Source: a candidate division FCPU426 bacterium (GTDB lineage Bacteria > Oederibacteriota > Muellerivitia > Muellerivitales > Muellerivitaceae). From it: a stretch of DNA of 64,000 nucleotides. Location: NCBI GenBank assembly GCA_963796105.1, contig CAWCKJ010000002.1:160001-224000 (forward strand), given 5' to 3'. The position numbers and the translations under genes were made by a program. Under the pieces are notes generated by a model. That model was given only the letters and a program-made list of their open reading frames with translations, ran no database searches and had not been told where the DNA came from. Below are positions 1-9,443 of the stretch, piece after piece. Numbering within the stretch: the first letter of the stretch is position 1; each line of letters opens with the position of its first letter.

Positions 1-2
1 TT

Positions 3-92
3 TCGGCGGTTGGGAACCAATGGACCAGGATCAAGAAGAGGATGCCGGTGGACCGGGAATTCGCCAAAAAAGTGCTAAAGTGTAAAATGTAG
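3..92 (+). CDS. 3' end of an upstream CDS truncated by the window edge
   Basis: Open frame from 3 (SAVGNQWTRIKKRMPVDREFAKKVLKCKM*) ends TAG at 90-92, same strand as the following gene. Confidence 0.5.
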   Translation, partial: SAVGNQWTRIKKRMPVDREFAKKVLKCKM

Positions 93-135
93 GCCTGACC
101 CCATTGTGGTGTGGGGGGAATGGAGGTTTAAATTG

Positions 136-873
136 ATGGATTTAATCAAGGGGGCGGTGAGGCGCTTGGCGGGGCTTTTCGGGCTGGAGGTCAGGCTCGC
201 GCCGACCAGGACCGGGGAATACGGGAACGTGTTCGCCCGCGCGATCTACAATCCCTGGAACCTGGACAAGGCCTTCCAGGAGGTTTACGCCTCCCTGGGG
301 CCCGCCACGGTGGTGGACGAGTACTGCTGTTACGAGCTCTGGAAGCTGGTGGAGCAAAGCGCGAAGCTGAGGGAGGGGTGCCTCATCGAGGCCGGGGTCT
401 GGCGCGGGGGGTCCGCCGCCCTCATCGCCCGGCAGGCCAGGAATTGCGGGATCAAGGACAAGGTCTATCTCTGCGACAACTTCAAGGGGGCGGTCAAGAC
501 AGGGGAAAAGGACACCTATTACAAGGGCGGGGAATTCACCGCCAACAGGCTGGAGCCGGAGGAACTGATCTTCAAAAAGATGGGGTTGGACAACGCCGAG
601 ATACTGGAGGGCATCTTCCCCGAGGAGACGGGGCACAGGGTCAAGGACCTGAAATTCCGGTTCTGCCACATCGACATCGGGGTTTACCAGGCGGAGAAGG
701 ACATCGCGGACTGGATCTGGGAAAGGATGGTTCCCGGGGGGATGGTGGTCTTCGGCTGTTACGGCTTCAAGGGGTGCGAGGGGACCACGAGGTACGTGAA
801 CGAGCGGATGGACAGGCCGGACAGGCTGGTGATCCAGAACCTCAACGGCCATGCGATATTCGTGAAGATTTGA
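136..873 (+). CDS. TylF/MycF/NovP-family O-methyltransferase (possibly degenerate)
   Basis: EAGVWRGGS SAM-binding motif, YLCDNFKG, GIFPEET, FCHID, MVPGGMVVF; GGAGG RBS before ATG 136. Confidence 0.8.
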   Translation: MDLIKGAVRRLAGLFGLEVRLAPTRTGEYGNVFARAIYNPWNLDKAFQEVYASLGPATVVDEYCCYELWKLVEQSAKLREGCLIEAGVWRGGSAALIARQARNCGIKDKVYLCDNFKGAVKTGEKDTYYKGGEFTANRLEPEELIFKKMGLDNAEILEGIFPEETGHRVKDLKFRFCHIDIGVYQAEKDIADWIWERMVPGGMVVFGCYGFKGCEGTTRYVNERMDRPDRLVIQNLNGHAIFVKI

Positions 874-907
874 TAAGGAAAATTAAAACTTAAACAACTT
901 CAATTTC

Positions 908-1139
908 ACCACAGGTTTCTTCGAAACCACATGCCGAACCTCATTTAAGCATTCAATGAAAGTTCGGTACAGATTTACTATAAATCTGCCCCTGCAATCC
1001 TCTCACTCGGCTGGTAGCCTCATGCGGCCTGTATAGCACCGATTTCTTTAACTGCTTTATGGTGAATCGGCGCAGAGTACACGGTAAAACATTCTCTTGG
1101 GTACAGCTAAAACATCAAAACAACTACGTCATCTCACCA
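908..1139. repeat. 232-bp multi-hairpin element, copy 1
   Basis: Near-identical to 1246-1477 (4 differences by eye) and similar to 4504-4736. Confidence 0.95.
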
Positions 1140-1245
1140 CATGCCAGCCCGCCATAAAACTAATAGGGTGGCTGGTATCATACCAATCTCCACATATGCT
1201 TAAAGGAAGATTGGCACAGGGACTCAGCTACTTCAACAACATTTA

Positions 1246-1477
1246 ACCACAGGTTCCTGCGGAACCACATGCCGAACCTCATTTAAGCATTCAATGAAAG
1301 TTCGGTACAGATTTACTATAAATCTGCCCCTGCAATCCTCTCACTCGGCTGGTAGCCTCATGCGGCCTGTATAGCACCGATTTCTTTAACCGCTTTATGG
1401 TGAATCGGCGCAGAGTACACGGTAAAACATTCTCTTGGGTACAGCTAAAACATCAAAACAACTACGTCATCTCACCA
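1246..1477. repeat. 232-bp multi-hairpin element, copy 2
   Basis: Direct repeat of 908-1139 at offset 338. Confidence 0.95.
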
Positions 1478-1642
1478 TCCCACTATGCTCTATGAGCTTC
1501 GATGGACAGGCAGCTTCAGATCGTGACAAGAGCATGGCTCTTGCGCCCTGCGGTCTTTATGGCGCATCCAAAGGCCTCGGAAAAATGGATTTTCCCGAAG
1601 GCCGTCGGTTACGCCATAGTACACGATCTATACATAACCTCT

Positions 1643-1768
1643 AACCTCTGAAAAAGTCGGCCATCGCCTCCTTTTTCAGAAAACAAATTATGGAAACCCC
1701 ACGATTTCCTGCGGAAATCTTTGGGGTCGAAACCTCTGTTGGCCGCTTTTAATAGTTTTTCAGAGGTT
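1643..1768. mobile_element. MITE-like element with 13-bp terminal inverted repeats
   Basis: AACCTCTGAAAAA (1643-1655) ... TTTTTCAGAGGTT (1756-1768); internal hairpin GATTTCC-TGC-GGAAATC; no ORF. Confidence 0.6.
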
Positions 1769-1789
1769 TCAACCTTTTAAATCTTCTAC

Positions 1790-2003
1790 TGTGATGCGTT
1801 AGCACTGTGGTTCCCGTAGGAACCTGTACCGATCATCCATAAAAATTTAGAGAGATCGGCACTATACCAGCCCCCATATCAGCCTTATGGAAGGCTGGCA
1901 TGTGGTTAATCTGTTTATCCCCTGCATCCCCTGAATCCCAGCTAAGATACTTTTTTTTCCTGTGTTGCGTTAGCACTGTGGTTCTGTAAGAACCCGTGGT
2001 GAA
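1790..2003. repeat. Inverted cluster of the same hairpin modules
   Basis: TGCGTTAGCACTGTGGTTC occurs twice (~1796, ~1966); GGTTYY/RRAACC hairpins at 1809-1824 and 1980-1994; TACC..GGCA palindromes at 1827-1861 and 1865-1900. Confidence 0.85.
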
Positions 2004-2095
2004 TCCGGGCATTGGCGGAAACCTTTGTTCCCCCAGTGGAAAGTTGTACAATGATTTTGATGGTTTTGGTGGTTGAAAATCGGAAAGGGGAAGCC

Positions 2096-2302
2096 ATGCG
2101 ACAAGTTCTTATTTACCCAGGAGAAGACGGTTATTGGGTGGCTGAATGTCCCAGCCTTCCGGGCTGTATTAGCCAAGGAAAGACACGGGAAAAAGCGATT
2201 CAAAACATCAAGGAAGCCATTGAAGGTTATATCGCCTCATTGAAAGACGACCATATCAGCATTCCCAAGGAACATTTCGAGGCCATGTTAGTAGCCATAT
2301 GA
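2096..2302 (+). CDS. hicB: HicB-family antitoxin (short, no DNA-binding domain)
   Basis: EDGYWVAECPSLPGCISQGKTREKAIQNIKEAI signature. Confidence 0.9.
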   Translation: MRQVLIYPGEDGYWVAECPSLPGCISQGKTREKAIQNIKEAIEGYIASLKDDHISIPKEHFEAMLVAI

Positions 2303-2520
2303 GTAAACTCCCCCGTTTATCGGGAAGGGAATGCGTTCAGGCACTTTCCAAAGTCGGCTATGTTTTTGTCCGGCAACATTCTTCCCATATCATCCTCCGC
2401 CGTAAAGAACCCTTTTCACAATTGACAGTGCCGGACCACAAGGAATTGGACCGAGGCACACTCCGCGCGATCATCCGGCAAGCTGGTTTGCAGGTGGAGG
2501 GTTTTACAAAATTATCATAA
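2299..2520 (+). CDS. hicA: HicA-family mRNA interferase toxin
   Basis: RQHSSHIIL...TVPDHKELDRGTLRAIIRQAG; ATGA overlap with hicB. Confidence 0.9.
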   Translation: MSKLPRLSGRECVQALSKVGYVFVRQHSSHIILRRKEPFSQLTVPDHKELDRGTLRAIIRQAGLQVEGFTKLS

Positions 2521-2647
2521 AAACCGTGTCTTAAAATCTGCTTCTTCGCCGCCAACCTGCCTTGATTAGTTCTGCGGACTATCGATTGCACTGCCACTCG
2601 AAGCGTTGGGTGCGGACTGCTTTATACAAGTTTTGGTTTGGAGATGA

Positions 2648-3964
2648 ATGAATAAGGCCCAAAACACCGCCGCGGGGTTCCTTGTAAAGTCCCTCGCGAG
2701 CCTGCTATCCAAGAAGCAGATGCTCAACAAGGCCGCCCTGATGACGGGGGCCAAGGTCCTGGGCATGGGCATCGGGGCGGCGGGAACCATCTACGCGGCC
2801 AGGTGCCTGGGGCCCCGCAGCCTGGGACTGTCGGGAATGGTCCAGAACATCGCGGGGCAGGGCATGCTCGCCACGGAATTCATCTCCACCACGGTCCTGA
2901 TCCGCGAGTACAAGAACGCCAGGGACGCCGGGGACAGGGACAGGATCGTCCAGGCCGCCAACGGCTTTTGGCTCCTGCCGGGCCTGGTTTTCTCGGTCCT
3001 GGCGGCGTTGTTCTTGATCCTCAAATGGGTCCCAGGCGATTACCAGACCGCCGGCTGGTTTTTCATTCCCTTGATCCTCCTGAGTTCCGTCCAGCCGGAT
3101 TGGATCTTCCAGGCGGAGGAGAAACAGCAACACCAGTCGCTTTTCGCGCTCATCCAGCCCCTGCTGATGACGGGCCTCTACCTCATCTGGTTCAAGCCGG
3201 GCGCGCAGGCCAGCGCCGATTTGTTCGTGAAATCCTCGGCGGCGGCGGTGATGTTCTTTGTTTACTGGCGGGGAATTTTCAAGCTTAGCTCCCTCAAGGG
3301 GTTCTTCATCCGGATCGATTTTTTCAGGGACATGAGGGACCTGGTCCTGAAATCCCGCTGGCTTTTCATTTCAGCAATCGCCGTTTACGTCTACAGCACC
3401 CTGGAACAGCCCCTTTTGGGCTGGCTTTTCTCGGTGGAGGAGCTCGGGAAATACCGCACAGCCTCCTCCGCGACGAACGCGGCCTGCTCCTTTTTCAACC
3501 TGATCCCCCTCATCCTTTACCCGAGGTTCATCGAGTGGCGGAAAAGGGGGGAAGAGGTCCTTTGGGTGAGGCAGTTGAAGCTCACGGCGCTTTTCTCGGC
3601 GGGCGGGGGCATCCTGGCCCTGGGAGGGTTTTGGCTGATCCCGCTTCTTTACCCCTACGTCTTCGGGCCTTCCTTCGCGGGAGCGGCGGTGCCCTGCGCC
3701 CTGCTGCTTCTATCGGAAATCATCGTGGTCATCAGCGGGCTCTTCAGCTGGGGCTTGTTGACGGACCACACCTACGACAAATTCGTGTCCTCCACCCTGA
3801 TCGGCACGGCGGTTTTCTCCCTCGCGACGAACCTTTTGTTCATCCCGAGGTTCGGGATGATGGGGGCGGCGCTGGTGCATTTGGCGAGCGAGATTCTGAT
3901 ATTGGGGGTGTTCTTCGGGCTGGCTTACAGGAGAATCGGGAACATTAGGAAGAAACAGGTTTGA
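2648..3964 (+). CDS. Wzx-like oligosaccharide flippase (MOP superfamily)
   Basis: About 12 hydrophobic segments, ARCLGP, LGKYRTA, NLLFIPRFGMMGAA; glycan-locus context. Confidence 0.85.
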   Translation: MNKAQNTAAGFLVKSLASLLSKKQMLNKAALMTGAKVLGMGIGAAGTIYAARCLGPRSLGLSGMVQNIAGQGMLATEFISTTVLIREYKNARDAGDRDRIVQAANGFWLLPGLVFSVLAALFLILKWVPGDYQTAGWFFIPLILLSSVQPDWIFQAEEKQQHQSLFALIQPLLMTGLYLIWFKPGAQASADLFVKSSAAAVMFFVYWRGIFKLSSLKGFFIRIDFFRDMRDLVLKSRWLFISAIAVYVYSTLEQPLLGWLFSVEELGKYRTASSATNAACSFFNLIPLILYPRFIEWRKRGEEVLWVRQLKLTALFSAGGGILALGGFWLIPLLYPYVFGPSFAGAAVPCALLLLSEIIVVISGLFSWGLLTDHTYDKFVSSTLIGTAVFSLATNLLFIPRFGMMGAALVHLASEILILGVFFGLAYRRIGNIRKKQV

Positions 3965-3971
3965 AGAAATT

Positions 3972-4213
3972 CTTTTCTTTTTTTGTCCCCATCATTCAAA
4001 CCCTCATTTAAACAATGGGGTTTCGTTATAAAATGTATTTATTGCTGGCTCGCTCCACACATTCCCCTGTGGGTTTCTAGTTATCTGAACTTGCGAATTT
4101 CCTTTTAATATTCCTAGCGATAAGGCCTAGAGGGCTCCCCTTACGCTTATATGAGTTGATCCTTTATGCCGCTTGGGTGGGGTTTTCATGAAGGGGACGG
4201 GGTTTTTTAAAAC
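3972..4213. repeat. ~245-nt structured intergenic element, copy A (candidate ncRNA or non-autonomous element)
   Basis: Colinear with 7707-7952; invariant 29-mer TCGCTCCACACATTCCCCTGTGGGTTTCT; conserved stems. Confidence 0.85.
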
Positions 4214-4240
4214 AAAAGCAAACCTTACCTTGCGGCCTAC

Positions 4241-4315
4241 GAGACTTTGATACTGGGGGGGGTGTTCTTCGGGCTGGCTTACAGGAGAATCGGGAAAATA
4301 CGTAGAAAAATATAA
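4241..4315 (+). pseudogene. Orphan second copy of the flippase 3' end
   Basis: Encodes ETLILGGVFFGLAYRRIGKIRRKI* versus gene EILILGVFFGLAYRRIGNIRKKQV*; GGGGGTGTTCTTCGGGCTGGCTTACAGGAGAATCGGGAA is identical. Confidence 0.85.
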
Positions 4316-4345
4316 TTTTGAATTGAAGGAAAAAACCACATATCA

Positions 4346-4850
4346 ACACAGGTTCTTTCAGAACCACAGCAACAACCTTGATTTAATACGGCTAAAAAAT
4401 ATCAAAAGCAACAACTTCAACATTTAACCACAGGTTCTTTCAGAACCACAGTAACATCCTCAATTTGGTACGGCTAAAAACATCAAAACAACAACATCAT
4501 CTCACCACAGGTTTCTTCGAAACCACATGCCGAACCTCATTTAAGCATTCAATGAAAGTTCGGTACAGATTTACTATAAATCTGCCCCGGCAATTCTCTC
4601 ACTCGGCTGGTAGCCTCATGCGGCCTGTATAGCACCGATTTCCTTAACCGATTTATGGAAAATCGGCGCAGAGACTCAGCTAAAACATTCTATGGGTTGC
4701 GGCTAAAAACATCAAAACAACAACATCATCTCACCACGGGTTCCCGCGGAACCACAGCAACAACCTCGATTTAAAACGGCTAAAAAATATCAAAAGCAAC
4801 AACTACAGATAACCCCTTACCAAGGCACGGGTTTCTTCGAAACCACAGTA
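4346..4850. repeat. Tandem array of five GGTTYY-NNN-RRAACC hairpin units with A/C-rich linkers; includes copy 3 of the 232-bp element (4504-4736)
   Basis: Hairpins at 4351, 4433, 4510, 4739 and 4830; recurring GGCTAAAAA(C/AT)ATCAAAA(G)CAACAAC linker. Confidence 0.9.
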
Positions 4851-4914
4851 AGACAAACATATTCCGGTTTACCACAGGGTTTTTTTAACGCAAATGCAAA
4901 CCGGCATTTAAAAT

Positions 4915-5205
4915 TTATTTTGATTTTGGGGATAAATCCATGGCGCCGTGGACAACAGCCAAGACATCTATTTGATCGGATTTAATCCGGTAAAAAATGC
5001 GGTAGGGGCCTTCTATGACTTCTCGTATTTGATCCGCGTCAAACTCCGGTACTCTGCGGCCGGATGTGGGAAAATCGGCAATTTGTTTGGACCTGCCGGT
5101 AAGGCGATCGACCATCCGTTTAGCGTAATCCGCTGAATCCCGAGCGATATGGGCGTGGAGCGCGTTGAGATGGTCTTCAGCCGAGTGAGTCCAACGGACC
5201 CTCAT
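4915..5205 (-). CDS. RelE/ParE-family toxin
   Basis: MRVRWTHSAEDHL...FPTSGRRVPE...IREVIEGPYRIFYRI...VLAVVHG. Confidence 0.9.
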   Translation of the reverse strand: MRVRWTHSAEDHLNALHAHIARDSADYAKRMVDRLTGRSKQIADFPTSGRRVPEFDADQIREVIEGPYRIFYRIKSDQIDVLAVVHGAMDLSPKSK

Positions 5206-5390
5206 CCAGGAAGACCGTATTTGGCCCGGATATCTCCTACGTCTTTAGTAAGACCAGCTTCGCTATCGGAAAGCCCCCGCTCAATGGCTTCCAAGACATA
5301 GATCTTGTGCATTAAATCATCCCATGTGGCGTTTGAGGGCATTTGGTCAATCAGTTTGTGAGCCTCTTCTTTTTTCATGATCTTGGACAT
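5202..5390 (-). CDS. Cognate antitoxin of the RelE/ParE toxin
   Basis: 62 aa, KLIDQMPSNATWDDLMHKIYVLEAIERGL; GGGAGG RBS; ATGA overlap with toxin. Confidence 0.8.
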   Translation of the reverse strand: MSKIMKKEEAHKLIDQMPSNATWDDLMHKIYVLEAIERGLSDSEAGLTKDVGDIRAKYGLPG

Positions 5391-5508
5391 GGGTTGCCTC
5401 CCGCTTTCATAATGTAGTTTATCAAGATGAAATACCCAAATCAATTCGGGCTGAAATGATTGAAAAGGCCAATCCCCGCGTTTAAAACTATAAATCGAGA
5501 AACAGGAA

Positions 5509-7663: not shown

Positions 7664-7706
7664 TTCCATCTTCCCGCACTTTAGATAAGCAACCCACCAG
7701 CAAGAG

Positions 7707-7952
7707 CTTTTTTCTTTTTTTCGTCCCCATCACTCAAGCTTTCATATAATCCATGGGGATTCGTTATGCAAAGGGAGCACGCTAGTTCGCTCCACACATT
7801 CCCCTGTGGGTTTCTCGATATGAAACTTTTAGATATTCCCTTTTAGATTGCTAGTTGAAATAAACTTAGAGGGTTCCCCTTGCGCTCATTTAAAATTGTT
7901 CCAATAGGCCTTTTGCAGGAAGCTTTCATGAAGGGGCCGGGGTTTTTAAAAC
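7707..7952. repeat. ~245-nt structured intergenic element, copy B
   Basis: Colinear with 3972-4213; same 29-mer at 7787-7815. Confidence 0.85.
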
Positions 7953-7989
7953 CGACAATAAAAGATTTTCCAATACAAAATATAACGAC

Positions 7990-8802: not shown

Positions 8803-9201
8803 TCATGGGATGCAACGGAAACCATGCTCCCGAAAATGTTTGTCGAAGGTAAGGATCTCTTTAATCCCGTTCCGGCGCATTACCTCAAAACTGACACAAT
8901 CCACCAAACTTAAATCCCTTTTCTTGGCCGTCATTACGGCGGACAGCCCCGCGTTATGCGCTGCCTCGTCCACCCAAACCACCGATAGGATGGGGACGAC
9001 ATCCTTCTGGAAATCGGATAGGGCCGCGAGACCCAGCCGGTTTTGGATAAGGGAACAGGTCTCCAAAAGAATGTAATTAGTGCAAACTAGCGCCGGGTCC
9101 GTTTCCATCAGGGATTTCCACGACTGGTCCGCCCTCTCGTGAAAACGGTCGTTCATGGTTAAAAGGGCGATGAAAAAAGAGGTGTCGACAAAGACGCTCA
9201 C
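8803..9201 (-). CDS. vapC: VapC-family PIN-domain toxin
   Basis: VFVDTSFFIA...LSLVDCVSF...TFDKHF. Confidence 0.9.
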   Translation of the reverse strand: MSVFVDTSFFIALLTMNDRFHERADQSWKSLMETDPALVCTNYILLETCSLIQNRLGLAALSDFQKDVVPILSVVWVDEAAHNAGLSAVMTAKKRDLSLVDCVSFEVMRRNGIKEILTFDKHFREHGFRCIP

Positions 9202-9443
9202 TGGGCGTAATCCCCGGCCAGGTACTTGTCATGGCGCAGGGAAAGGTCGGAATGGCGGGAATGGAATTTCCCGGATATGGCGATGGCGCGTTCCCGCCTT
9301 TCCTCCGGACTCAGACTTCCGTTTTTCAGGTATAAATCAACCCCTTGGCGGATGGCCTCGGCCATTGAGATTTTTCGCTTCCGGGATAATTTTTTCAAGG
9401 AAATGGTTTGTTTCTGGGTCAATTGGATCTGGGTGCGGACCAT
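9198..9443 (-). CDS. CopG/RHH-family antitoxin (VapB-like)
   Basis: MVRTQIQLT...SMAEAIRQGVD...DLSLRHDKYL; GTGA overlap with vapC. Confidence 0.85.
   Translation of the reverse strand: MVRTQIQLTQKQTISLKKLSRKRKISMAEAIRQGVDLYLKNGSLSPEERRERAIAISGKFHSRHSDLSLRHDKYLAGDYAQ

Follow-up and report, generated by a model that had tools for sequence, protein, structure and literature searches.

What are the nine short hairpins that crowd into the first 4.9 kb of a 64,000-nucleotide stretch of a candidate division FCPU426 genome (assembly GCA_963796105.1, contig CAWCKJ010000002.1, positions 160,001 to 224,000; hereafter the window), and is their fold used as DNA or as RNA? We find that each hairpin takes the place of a 3-4 nt spacer, without adding a word, in an arm built of short tandem sequence words. 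The hairpins very probably belong to the arms of gene-less cassettes whose gene-bearing counterparts enclose a gene for a GxxExxY protein.

All nine hairpins reported in an initial annotation of the window were recovered with their positions, stems and loops. They start at 914, 1252, 1809, 1980, 4351, 4433, 4510, 4739 and 4830, have GGTTTC/GAAACC, GGTTCC/GGAACC or GGTTCT/AGAACC stems and, read on the TGTGG strand, carry in that order the loops GAA, GCA, CGTA, GTA, GAA, GAA, GAA, GCG and GAA. The full hairpin pattern matched nine times in the window and never in 100 shuffles, and the stem-only pattern nine times against a shuffle mean of 0.34 (maximum 3). The description of the set as strand-specific GNA triloops holds for seven of the nine; the exceptions are the GCG loop and the 4-nt CGTA loop. 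Two further inner hairpins with GTTA loops, at 1795-1804 and 1966-1975, had escaped that annotation. All nine are intergenic and occupy two gaps comparatively rich in A+T (G+C 45% and 41%, compared with about 60% for adjacent genes) of a polysaccharide gene cluster that includes HicAB and ParE modules. The hairpins at 914, 1252 and 4510 are members of one 237-nt repeat family and those at 4351, 4433 and 4739 of an 89-nt family; hence the nine are local family copies and not nine independent events.

Genome-wide, a search requiring near-perfect stems found at least 88 copies of the GG..CC type, and a word-based parser added 40 hairpin arms with other stems (about 128 in total). Eighteen of the 88 copies fall within one 68-kb island that overlaps the start of the window. 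A peptide-coding constraint on the stems was rejected, as stem variants encode different amino acids and 78 of the 88 copies lie outside crude open reading frame (ORF) calls. A search of the genome anchored on the flanks only gave 208 matches. Perfect stems of 6 bp were present in 58 of the 105 cores that are 15 nt long, and of 7 bp in 13 of the 28 that are 17 nt long; just 3 of the 75 remaining matches held a 6-bp stem. The same kind of anchor gave 44 matches (27 distinct) in viral contigs, with no hairpin among them. Of the 73 stems in the 6-bp class 70 are perfect, whereas shuffling the 3' arms among copies leaves 23.8 perfect on average (maximum 36).

The covariation alignment comprised 17 rows from seven genomes, namely 8 window copies and 9 from six relatives, the GNA loop having been imposed in choosing the relatives' rows. 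Pairing holds in 99% of its cells and the covariation score of 0.62 exceeds all 500 shuffles; both sides change in 4 of 6 pairs, which is not above the shuffles (112 of 500 reach 4). Covariation and strand-specific GNA loops persist both across the genome and in relatives, where loops are not random and stems not uncompensated. The compensatory changes claimed for the window therefore stand at this larger scale. The exception is the pair at 914 and 1252, whose 237-nt repeats have 5 differences, of which 4 fall in the arm end and hairpin, so that a swap of the whole allele looks likelier there than compensation in place.

The setting of the hairpins is regular. Their consensus context is CTGTG-(3-4 nt)-YTGTG-hairpin-CTGTGGTGAA, with the hairpin between the second and the last word of an arm that has two or three tandem words and ends in GYGGTKAA. 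A hairpin-free version of the arm is present in this genome and in 15 of 41 genomes searched (reversed control, no matches). Words were counted in 130 arms, kept from 220 parsed by a filter for low interior G+C. Three words were found in 63 arms with one short spacer and one hairpin, in 15 plain arms and in one arm with two hairpins; two words in 28 arms with a hairpin and 21 plain; and four words in one arm of either kind. At 35 loci from other genomes (some of them duplicates) there were 45 three-word arms with a spacer and a hairpin, and none with four words. An insertion that duplicates a word would yield many four-word arms, unless an inner word were then lost, and 63 against 1 thus argues against duplication of this kind.

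Further properties of the arms bear on geometry. Hairpin cores vary from 13 to 17 nt in relatives, hence helical phase in duplex DNA is not what is preserved. In all nine pairs that bear two hairpins the stems differ, so each hairpin can pair with itself better than with the opposite arm. When 11 cassettes were folded with DNA parameters, six were predicted to form local hairpins (four a clean four-way junction, one a three-way junction and one a branched interior). The idea that hairpin extrusion exactly restores the plain arm sequence was rejected by the letters themselves; a version in terms of physical distance is left standing.

The rival that survives best is that the hairpin is a tiny mobile element of its own, like the small dispersed repeats (SDRs) of cyanobacteria, which inserts into arm words and is tolerated by the cassette. 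SDRs of Nostocaceae were reportedly described by Elhai et al. in 2008 as hairpins of about 20 nt that show compensatory changes and lie within short tandem repeats or mini-transposons, and are said to have been proposed to move via RNA. Insertion of this kind would explain why whole hairpin alleles differ between near-identical repeats, why TGTGG stands on both sides of the hairpin like a target duplication, and why hairpin arms are so unevenly distributed (present in 10 of the family's 30 genomes and in none of 68 from other families of the phylum); there is also the precedent of SDR5, which is reported to insert into HIP1 (PMC5861425, in excerpt). Among eight copies of one TIRtron family with an intact right end, four carry at that end a 25-nt insert that completes a 10-bp hairpin with target letters and four are without it, a clean contrast of filled and empty sites for a tiny hairpin insert (Table 1), so that small hairpins do come and go in this setting. 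The word counts speak the other way, since plain arms are three-word arms too, and the genome holds 34 distinct stems (a few probably chance) with no common sequence. Furthermore, the hairpin nearly always occupies one and the same spacer. Unlike an SDR, the cassette hairpin replaces a spacer at a fixed place, with many unrelated stems and DNA-type loops, and we regard independent insertion as unlikely.

The loops are as regular as the positions. Across 84 triloops 69 are GNA and none is TNC; GAA is the commonest (54 of 84), and the other 15 comprise 5 ANA, 5 ANC, 1 GNG and 4 of other types. The closing pair is C-G in 49 of the 69 GNA loops. Counted by distinct stem, G..A loops prevail in 27 of 34 and T..C loops in none. 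As a background, GNA read on either strand is the loop of 133 among the 518 triloop hairpins found elsewhere between genes and of 218 among 1586 in coding sequence. Five inner-spacer hairpins in the genome, two of them in the window, all have cGNNAg loops. G..A loops are also seen in the relative G003 (25 of 36 hairpins, T..C in none) and, in G017, together with a second arm word (all 6 hairpin matches). In DNA, a GNA loop closed by C:G has unusual stability, and titles cited in the same paper name sheared A:A, G:G and A:C loops (AAA, GAG) and d(cGNNAg) (PMC3201870, in excerpt). The exceptions in G003 and a run of AAA loops in another relative, G042, indicate that GNA is favoured and not required. 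As a side observation, outside the arms, 26% of intergenic triloop hairpins with a perfect 6-bp stem have GNA/TNC loops, compared with 14% of those in ORFs, so other elements here may use the same DNA loop.

Loop and strand also weigh on a second rival, in which pairing is a by-product: founder palindromes would arise by template switching, be repaired likewise and multiply with the cassette, the fold itself going unread. Template switching perfects quasi-palindromes. Three stems make up most copies in this genome, G042 shows a near-clonal burst of 25 near-identical hairpin arms, and inverted loops do exist (GAT beside ATC, TTT beside AAA), all of which a by-product would accommodate. It would not be expected, on the same account, that the commonest loop, GAA, is never found inverted as the rarer loops are, or that same-strand G..A loops recur over so many distinct stems and with the second word. 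We therefore consider an unread by-product improbable.

The arrangement of the arms connects the hairpins with GxxExxY genes. Of the 88 hairpins, 24 have an inverted arm end on their inner side and one has it on the outer side, and arm pairs face inward in 11 cases and outward in one. Each of the five distinct metagenome loci consists of a pair without a gene, both arms bearing a hairpin. In 48 of 52 GxxExxY locus rows (two genes counted twice) an inverted repeat scoring at least 12 surrounds the gene, 34 with an RCCRC end. One of the two GxxExxY genes of this genome sits in a cluster of hairpin arms, and one gene in G017 is flanked by arms built of another word, both spacers being GNA hairpins. 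Of the 26 genomes with GxxExxY 14 have plain arms, as does 1 of the 15 without it, kin not being independent. Since hairpin arms directly flank just 2 of about 50 GxxExxY genes, the link rests mostly on the common arm design. A protein tree of 39 of the 52 rows has two clades at 100/100, one with GYGGC arm ends in all 8 of its labelled rows, the other with GYGGT in 27 of 28; the second clade includes the gene with hairpin arms; this match is explicable by shared ancestry, and hence we claim no co-evolution. Often, as at L031, L032, L036, L037 and L049, the upstream gene takes its stop codon from the outer end of the left arm or stops immediately before it.

The GxxExxY protein belongs to TIGR04256 and PF13366 (PDDEXK_3). 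Residues D77, E87 and K89 are conserved across 118 homologues, and an alignment-based model has a PD-(D/E)XK fold with a predicted local distance difference test (pLDDT) score of 93.5. The nearest folds were Cas4 SSO0001 (Z 7.6, root-mean-square deviation (rmsd) 4.9, 101 aligned) and Hjc (Z 6.1, rmsd 3.2, 86 aligned), all Z scores being below 8. Foldseek with the model returned no match at E 0.001 or better, and a sequence search of solved structures gave a single match, to a ribosomal protein, at E 0.63. The proteins are very widespread (7999 of 7999 scored candidates above the cut-off) and are listed as being of unknown function with many transfers (PMC3424549, in excerpt). In the openly accessible literature on GxxExxY, TIGR04256 and PF13366, partly seen and with subscription papers and supplements beyond the search, no arms or hairpins are described, and a GxxExxY arm cassette with hairpin spacers is apparently undescribed in print.

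A third rival takes the hairpins as repetitive extragenic palindromes (REPs) with a GTGG guide, spread as single-stranded DNA by an HUH transposase (TnpA-REP/RAYT), the guide and the enzyme that the initial annotation had in mind. The likeness is considerable. The family is a short extragenic palindrome in many copies, with a short stem, a tiny loop and an intergenic location, and it forms inverted doublets and clusters like REPINs (PMC3116915, in excerpt); GTGG-tagged REPs are known (PMC6006769, PMC3733652, both in excerpt); and the genome has 16 Y1/HUH matches, one ending inside the window. Canonical REPs are defined by a GTAG or GTGG tetranucleotide 0-2 nt 5' of the stem (PMC6006769, in excerpt), and here neither guide nor enzyme was borne out: a free GT[AG]G foot was found in 1 of 93 hairpin arms (GTGG overlaps the stem in 53 and is absent from 39), and no family hairpin lies within 300 nt of any of 39 parsed Y1 loci. 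These were parsed from 43 loci in five genomes, with one unrelated hairpin flagged and GGGTCAG-type ends in 25. In this genome two of the 16 matches are short (IS200 TnpA size) and about 14 are TIRtron-type with their own GGGGTCAGG-type ends, the nearest family hairpin being at least 891 nt from any of them. One relative, G007 (85% complete), has hairpin arms and GxxExxY with no Y1 match. An HUH partner in this genome or its relatives was rejected, as most HUH genes own other ends and have no family hairpin nearby, and spread by such an enzyme is very unlikely.

The comparison with REPINs and RAYTs is nevertheless instructive. In excerpts of PMC3116915, PMC6006769 and PMC3733652 they share with the cassette gene-less intergenic inverted doublets, clusters, nesting and heterodimers with different stems, as well as one enzyme gene flanked by its own repeats and likely recognition of single-stranded DNA. 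They differ in that the cassette is without a free GT[AG]G foot, its hairpin is optional and lies inside a tandem-word arm, and the gene it flanks encodes a PD-(D/E)XK nuclease, not an HUH enzyme. The cassette thus resembles the REPIN system yet departs from it on two defining points, the free foot and the flanking of a RAYT gene. TIRtrons, with their TIRYT Y1 enzymes, likewise have an enzyme gene between terminal inverted repeats and are present in this genome (PMC3733652, in excerpt); their ends and enzyme are unrelated, and they are not the source of the cassette hairpins. A miniature inverted-repeat transposable element of a DDE insertion sequence, which would share its terminal inverted repeats with a transposase-carrying element and show a target-site duplication, is a further comparison: the gene seen within these arms is GxxExxY, and the relatives are too distant to show a duplication.

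Is the fold used as DNA or as RNA? The loop strand is fixed to the arm, hence left and right arms carry GNA on opposite strands. Relative to co-directional transcription the GNA strand is sense in 20 cases and antisense in 33 (p=0.10), with 21 convergent and 14 divergent contexts. It shows no tie to GC skew, and no bias of the hairpins between leading and lagging strands was seen (31 against 40, 17 flat, p=0.34). A T-rich tail follows 1 of 88 hairpins on one strand and none on the other. An intrinsic terminator was rejected on the missing T tract and the missing orientation with transcription; terminator and promoter scans gave no match at the nine hairpins, and an Rfam scan of window positions 850-5000 gave two weak matches far under the gathering score. 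Because the loop strand tracks the element and not the transcript, and because there is no T tract, a DNA structure is likelier than an RNA one, as had been surmised for the window, and selection quite likely acts for the DNA fold. A role in RNA, whether as terminators, stabilisers of mRNA or a cassette moving through an RNA copy, would suit hairpins that are intergenic, often just past a stop codon or ahead of a start, and that would fold as RNA too (about -7.5 kcal/mol), and is nonetheless highly improbable given a loop strand unlinked to transcription, no Rfam family at the cut-off and a loop set that fits DNA-stable triloops and not GNRA or UUCG tetraloops.

On balance we lean towards the view that the hairpins are folded spacers, and that a protein, most likely GxxExxY, reads the arms in single-stranded or extruded form. 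Arm position, word number, pairing with free stem sequence and length, the loop and strand bias, inverted arms, the GxxExxY arm design and presence or absence between genomes are direct observations. The mechanism built on them is conditional. The arm would be read where it is unpaired or locally extruded, and a folded hairpin of 5-7 bp would bring two words about as close together as the usual 3-4 nt spacer does; the B-DNA helix is about 2 nm wide. Hairpin arms would be readable only when folded, so that copies with stable DNA loops would spread. With a hairpin in both arms one folded strand could form a four-way junction, and the cut would be made by a GxxExxY nuclease encoded elsewhere in the genome.

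A precedent for such reading exists in the promoters of the N4 virion RNA polymerase. Their hairpins extrude from supercoiled DNA, also in vivo, provided that the G and A of the loop and the C:G closing pair are present, and are read by a protein (PMC4496689, in excerpt). In that excerpt they share with the cassette hairpins a short stem of partly free sequence, a 3-nt loop, a sheared G:A, C:G closure and restriction to one strand. They differ in being phage promoters, whereas the cassette hairpins are ends of a dispersed chromosomal cassette with a putative reader. On this precedent, extrusion from the duplex and a free single strand are both possible routes for reading the arm.

Several points weigh against folded spacers read by GxxExxY. 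A partner arm is detectable for no more than the 24 of 88 hairpins noted above, and the five at 4351-4844 are without one nearby; direct flanking of GxxExxY genes by hairpin arms is as rare as stated; and the inverted-repeat score at the GxxExxY loci stands without a shuffled control, on related genomes that are not independent. As the nearest folds are generic PD-(D/E)XK enzymes, they fix no mechanism. To our knowledge a PD-(D/E)XK nuclease is not by itself a known transposase. Five of the 11 folded cassettes were predicted as one long duplex with no local hairpins, and the word counts and intergenic location depend on the low-G+C filter and on crude ORFs, respectively. On the side of the loops, copy amplification inflates the counts, 20 of the 69 GNA loops are without C-G closure, 11 of 36 loops in G003 are not G..A, and 23 of the 25 near-identical arms of G042 have AAA. 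ViennaRNA places the strand opposite GNA slightly lower in energy with RNA and DNA parameters alike; neither parameter set is known to include a GNA bonus. Finally, a search inside the genome gave no exact empty allele, with one imperfect match for 88 queries, and one DNA sequencing run, which covered just short pieces, yielded no allele.

Comparison between genomes points to presence and absence of the arms. A scan of GTDB with the 6-bp pattern gave 4 matches, of which 2 are real arms and 2 fall within genes by chance. Seven orthologous junctions were compared, and at these the relatives are without the arm or have a hairpin-less cassette, often of another word. A 1.2-kb GxxExxY junction corresponds to 82 nt in G003 and to 103 nt in G019. 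With relatives 65-88% identical, neither exact ends nor target duplications were legible at the seven junctions. One gene junction (L100:4399-4584; orthologues L203, L204 and L206) holds cassettes of three different words in four genomes, which suggests repeated replacement at preferred sites.

The features of the window are collected in Table 1. A twin-hairpin element of about 75 nt, single or nested, splits CTGTG words of the arms at TG at the five insert positions listed; a loose pattern matched it 118 times in the genome, and in G001 it was found within arms of another word. Toxin-antitoxin pairs stand beside the arm stacks in the polysaccharide cluster, where a small two-gene pair lies at 8803-9443 in addition to HicAB and ParE. 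The last 42 or so nt of the flippase gene (3904-3945) are duplicated at 98%, 354 nt downstream (4258-4299), just ahead of the second stack. Downstream of two different glycosylation genes (at 3964-4222 and 7702-7962) stand copies, 72-79% alike, of a block of about 260 nt, possibly another mini-element.

Table 1. Arms, hairpins and neighbouring genes in the window (window positions), followed by copies of one TIRtron family with their loci.
Feature	Position	Strand	Basis or remark
Three-word arm, left-arm orientation; outer word 910-914, inner word 1080-1084	904..1084	-	sequence
141-nt nested insert interrupting the middle word of arm 904..1084	932-1072		sequence
Hairpin 1, 6-bp stem, GAA loop, C-G closure	914..928	-	pattern match
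Plain two-word arm without hairpin; 75-nt twin-hairpin insert (1142-1216) interrupts outer word	1133..1227	-	
Three-word arm, 98% copy of 903-1139 with a different hairpin allele; nested insert 1270-1410	1242..1422	-	
Hairpin 2, 6-bp stem, GCA loop, C-G closure	1252..1266	-	pattern match
Three-word arm, right-arm orientation, both spacers replaced: inner hairpin 1795-1804 (3 bp, GTTA), outer 1809-1824	1789..1909	+	
76-nt twin-hairpin element interrupting the outer word of arm 1789..1909	1825-1900		
Hairpin 3, 6-bp stem, 4-nt loop CGTA	1809..1824	+	pattern match
Intact three-word arm, both spacers replaced: inner hairpin 1966-1975 (GTTA), outer 1980-1994	1960..2003	+	
Hairpin 4, 6-bp stem, GTA loop, T-A closure	1980..1994	+	pattern match
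Decayed two-word arm with hairpin 5 (4351-4365, GAA)	4342..4369	-	opens head-to-tail stack, period about 80 nt
Two-word arm with hairpin 6 (4433-4447, GAA)	4424..4451	-	
Three-word arm with hairpin 7 (4510-4524, GAA); nested insert 4528-4668; inner word 4675-4679	4500..4679	-	
Two-word arm with hairpin 8 (4739-4753, GCG)	4730..4757	-	
Truncated arm with hairpin 9 (4830-4844, GAA), without outer end	4826..4848	-	
TylF-like methyltransferase gene	106..873	+	stop 31 nt before first arm stack
HicB-like and HicA toxin-antitoxin pair	2096..2520	+	directly after first stack
Polysaccharide flippase-type gene (PF01943)	2648..3964	+	
ParE toxin gene and small upstream ORF without family match	4915..5444	-	adjoins second stack
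3' end of TIRtron-type Y1 (HUH) transposase gene and its own inverted end (94-102)	1..102	+	outside hairpin family
TIRtron copies with 25-nt insert	G000 C12:332943, C11:133902, C3:665009, C4:1409170		L003, L004, L009, L013
TIRtron copies without 25-nt insert	G000 C4:1337874, C3:193643, C6:76965, C6:195701		L005, L006, L010, L016

Should nothing read the fold, the hairpins amount to a commonplace embellishment of a small repeat, peculiar to this lineage. What is new here is the rule by which a hairpin replaces a spacer, together with the DNA-loop signature, and the natural variants indicate what counts in the arm: word number and folding are kept, while the sequence and length of the spacer are free. 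More tentatively, and in our view doubtfully, GxxExxY cassettes may form a class of mobile DNA that a minimal PD-(D/E)XK nuclease moves via a folded single-strand or cruciform intermediate. Were that so, hairpin-for-spacer swaps would reveal the geometry that is read, three words at a fixed physical distance, and paired arms would form a three- or four-way junction at the cut site, giving a REPIN-like system with a non-HUH enzyme. In the arms, selection for very stable GNA DNA mini-hairpins would then be seen on a chromosome, the N4 phage promoter being a precedent. They offer the first structural clue to how this apparently undescribed cassette might move, and a candidate substrate for the widespread GxxExxY nucleases of no known function.

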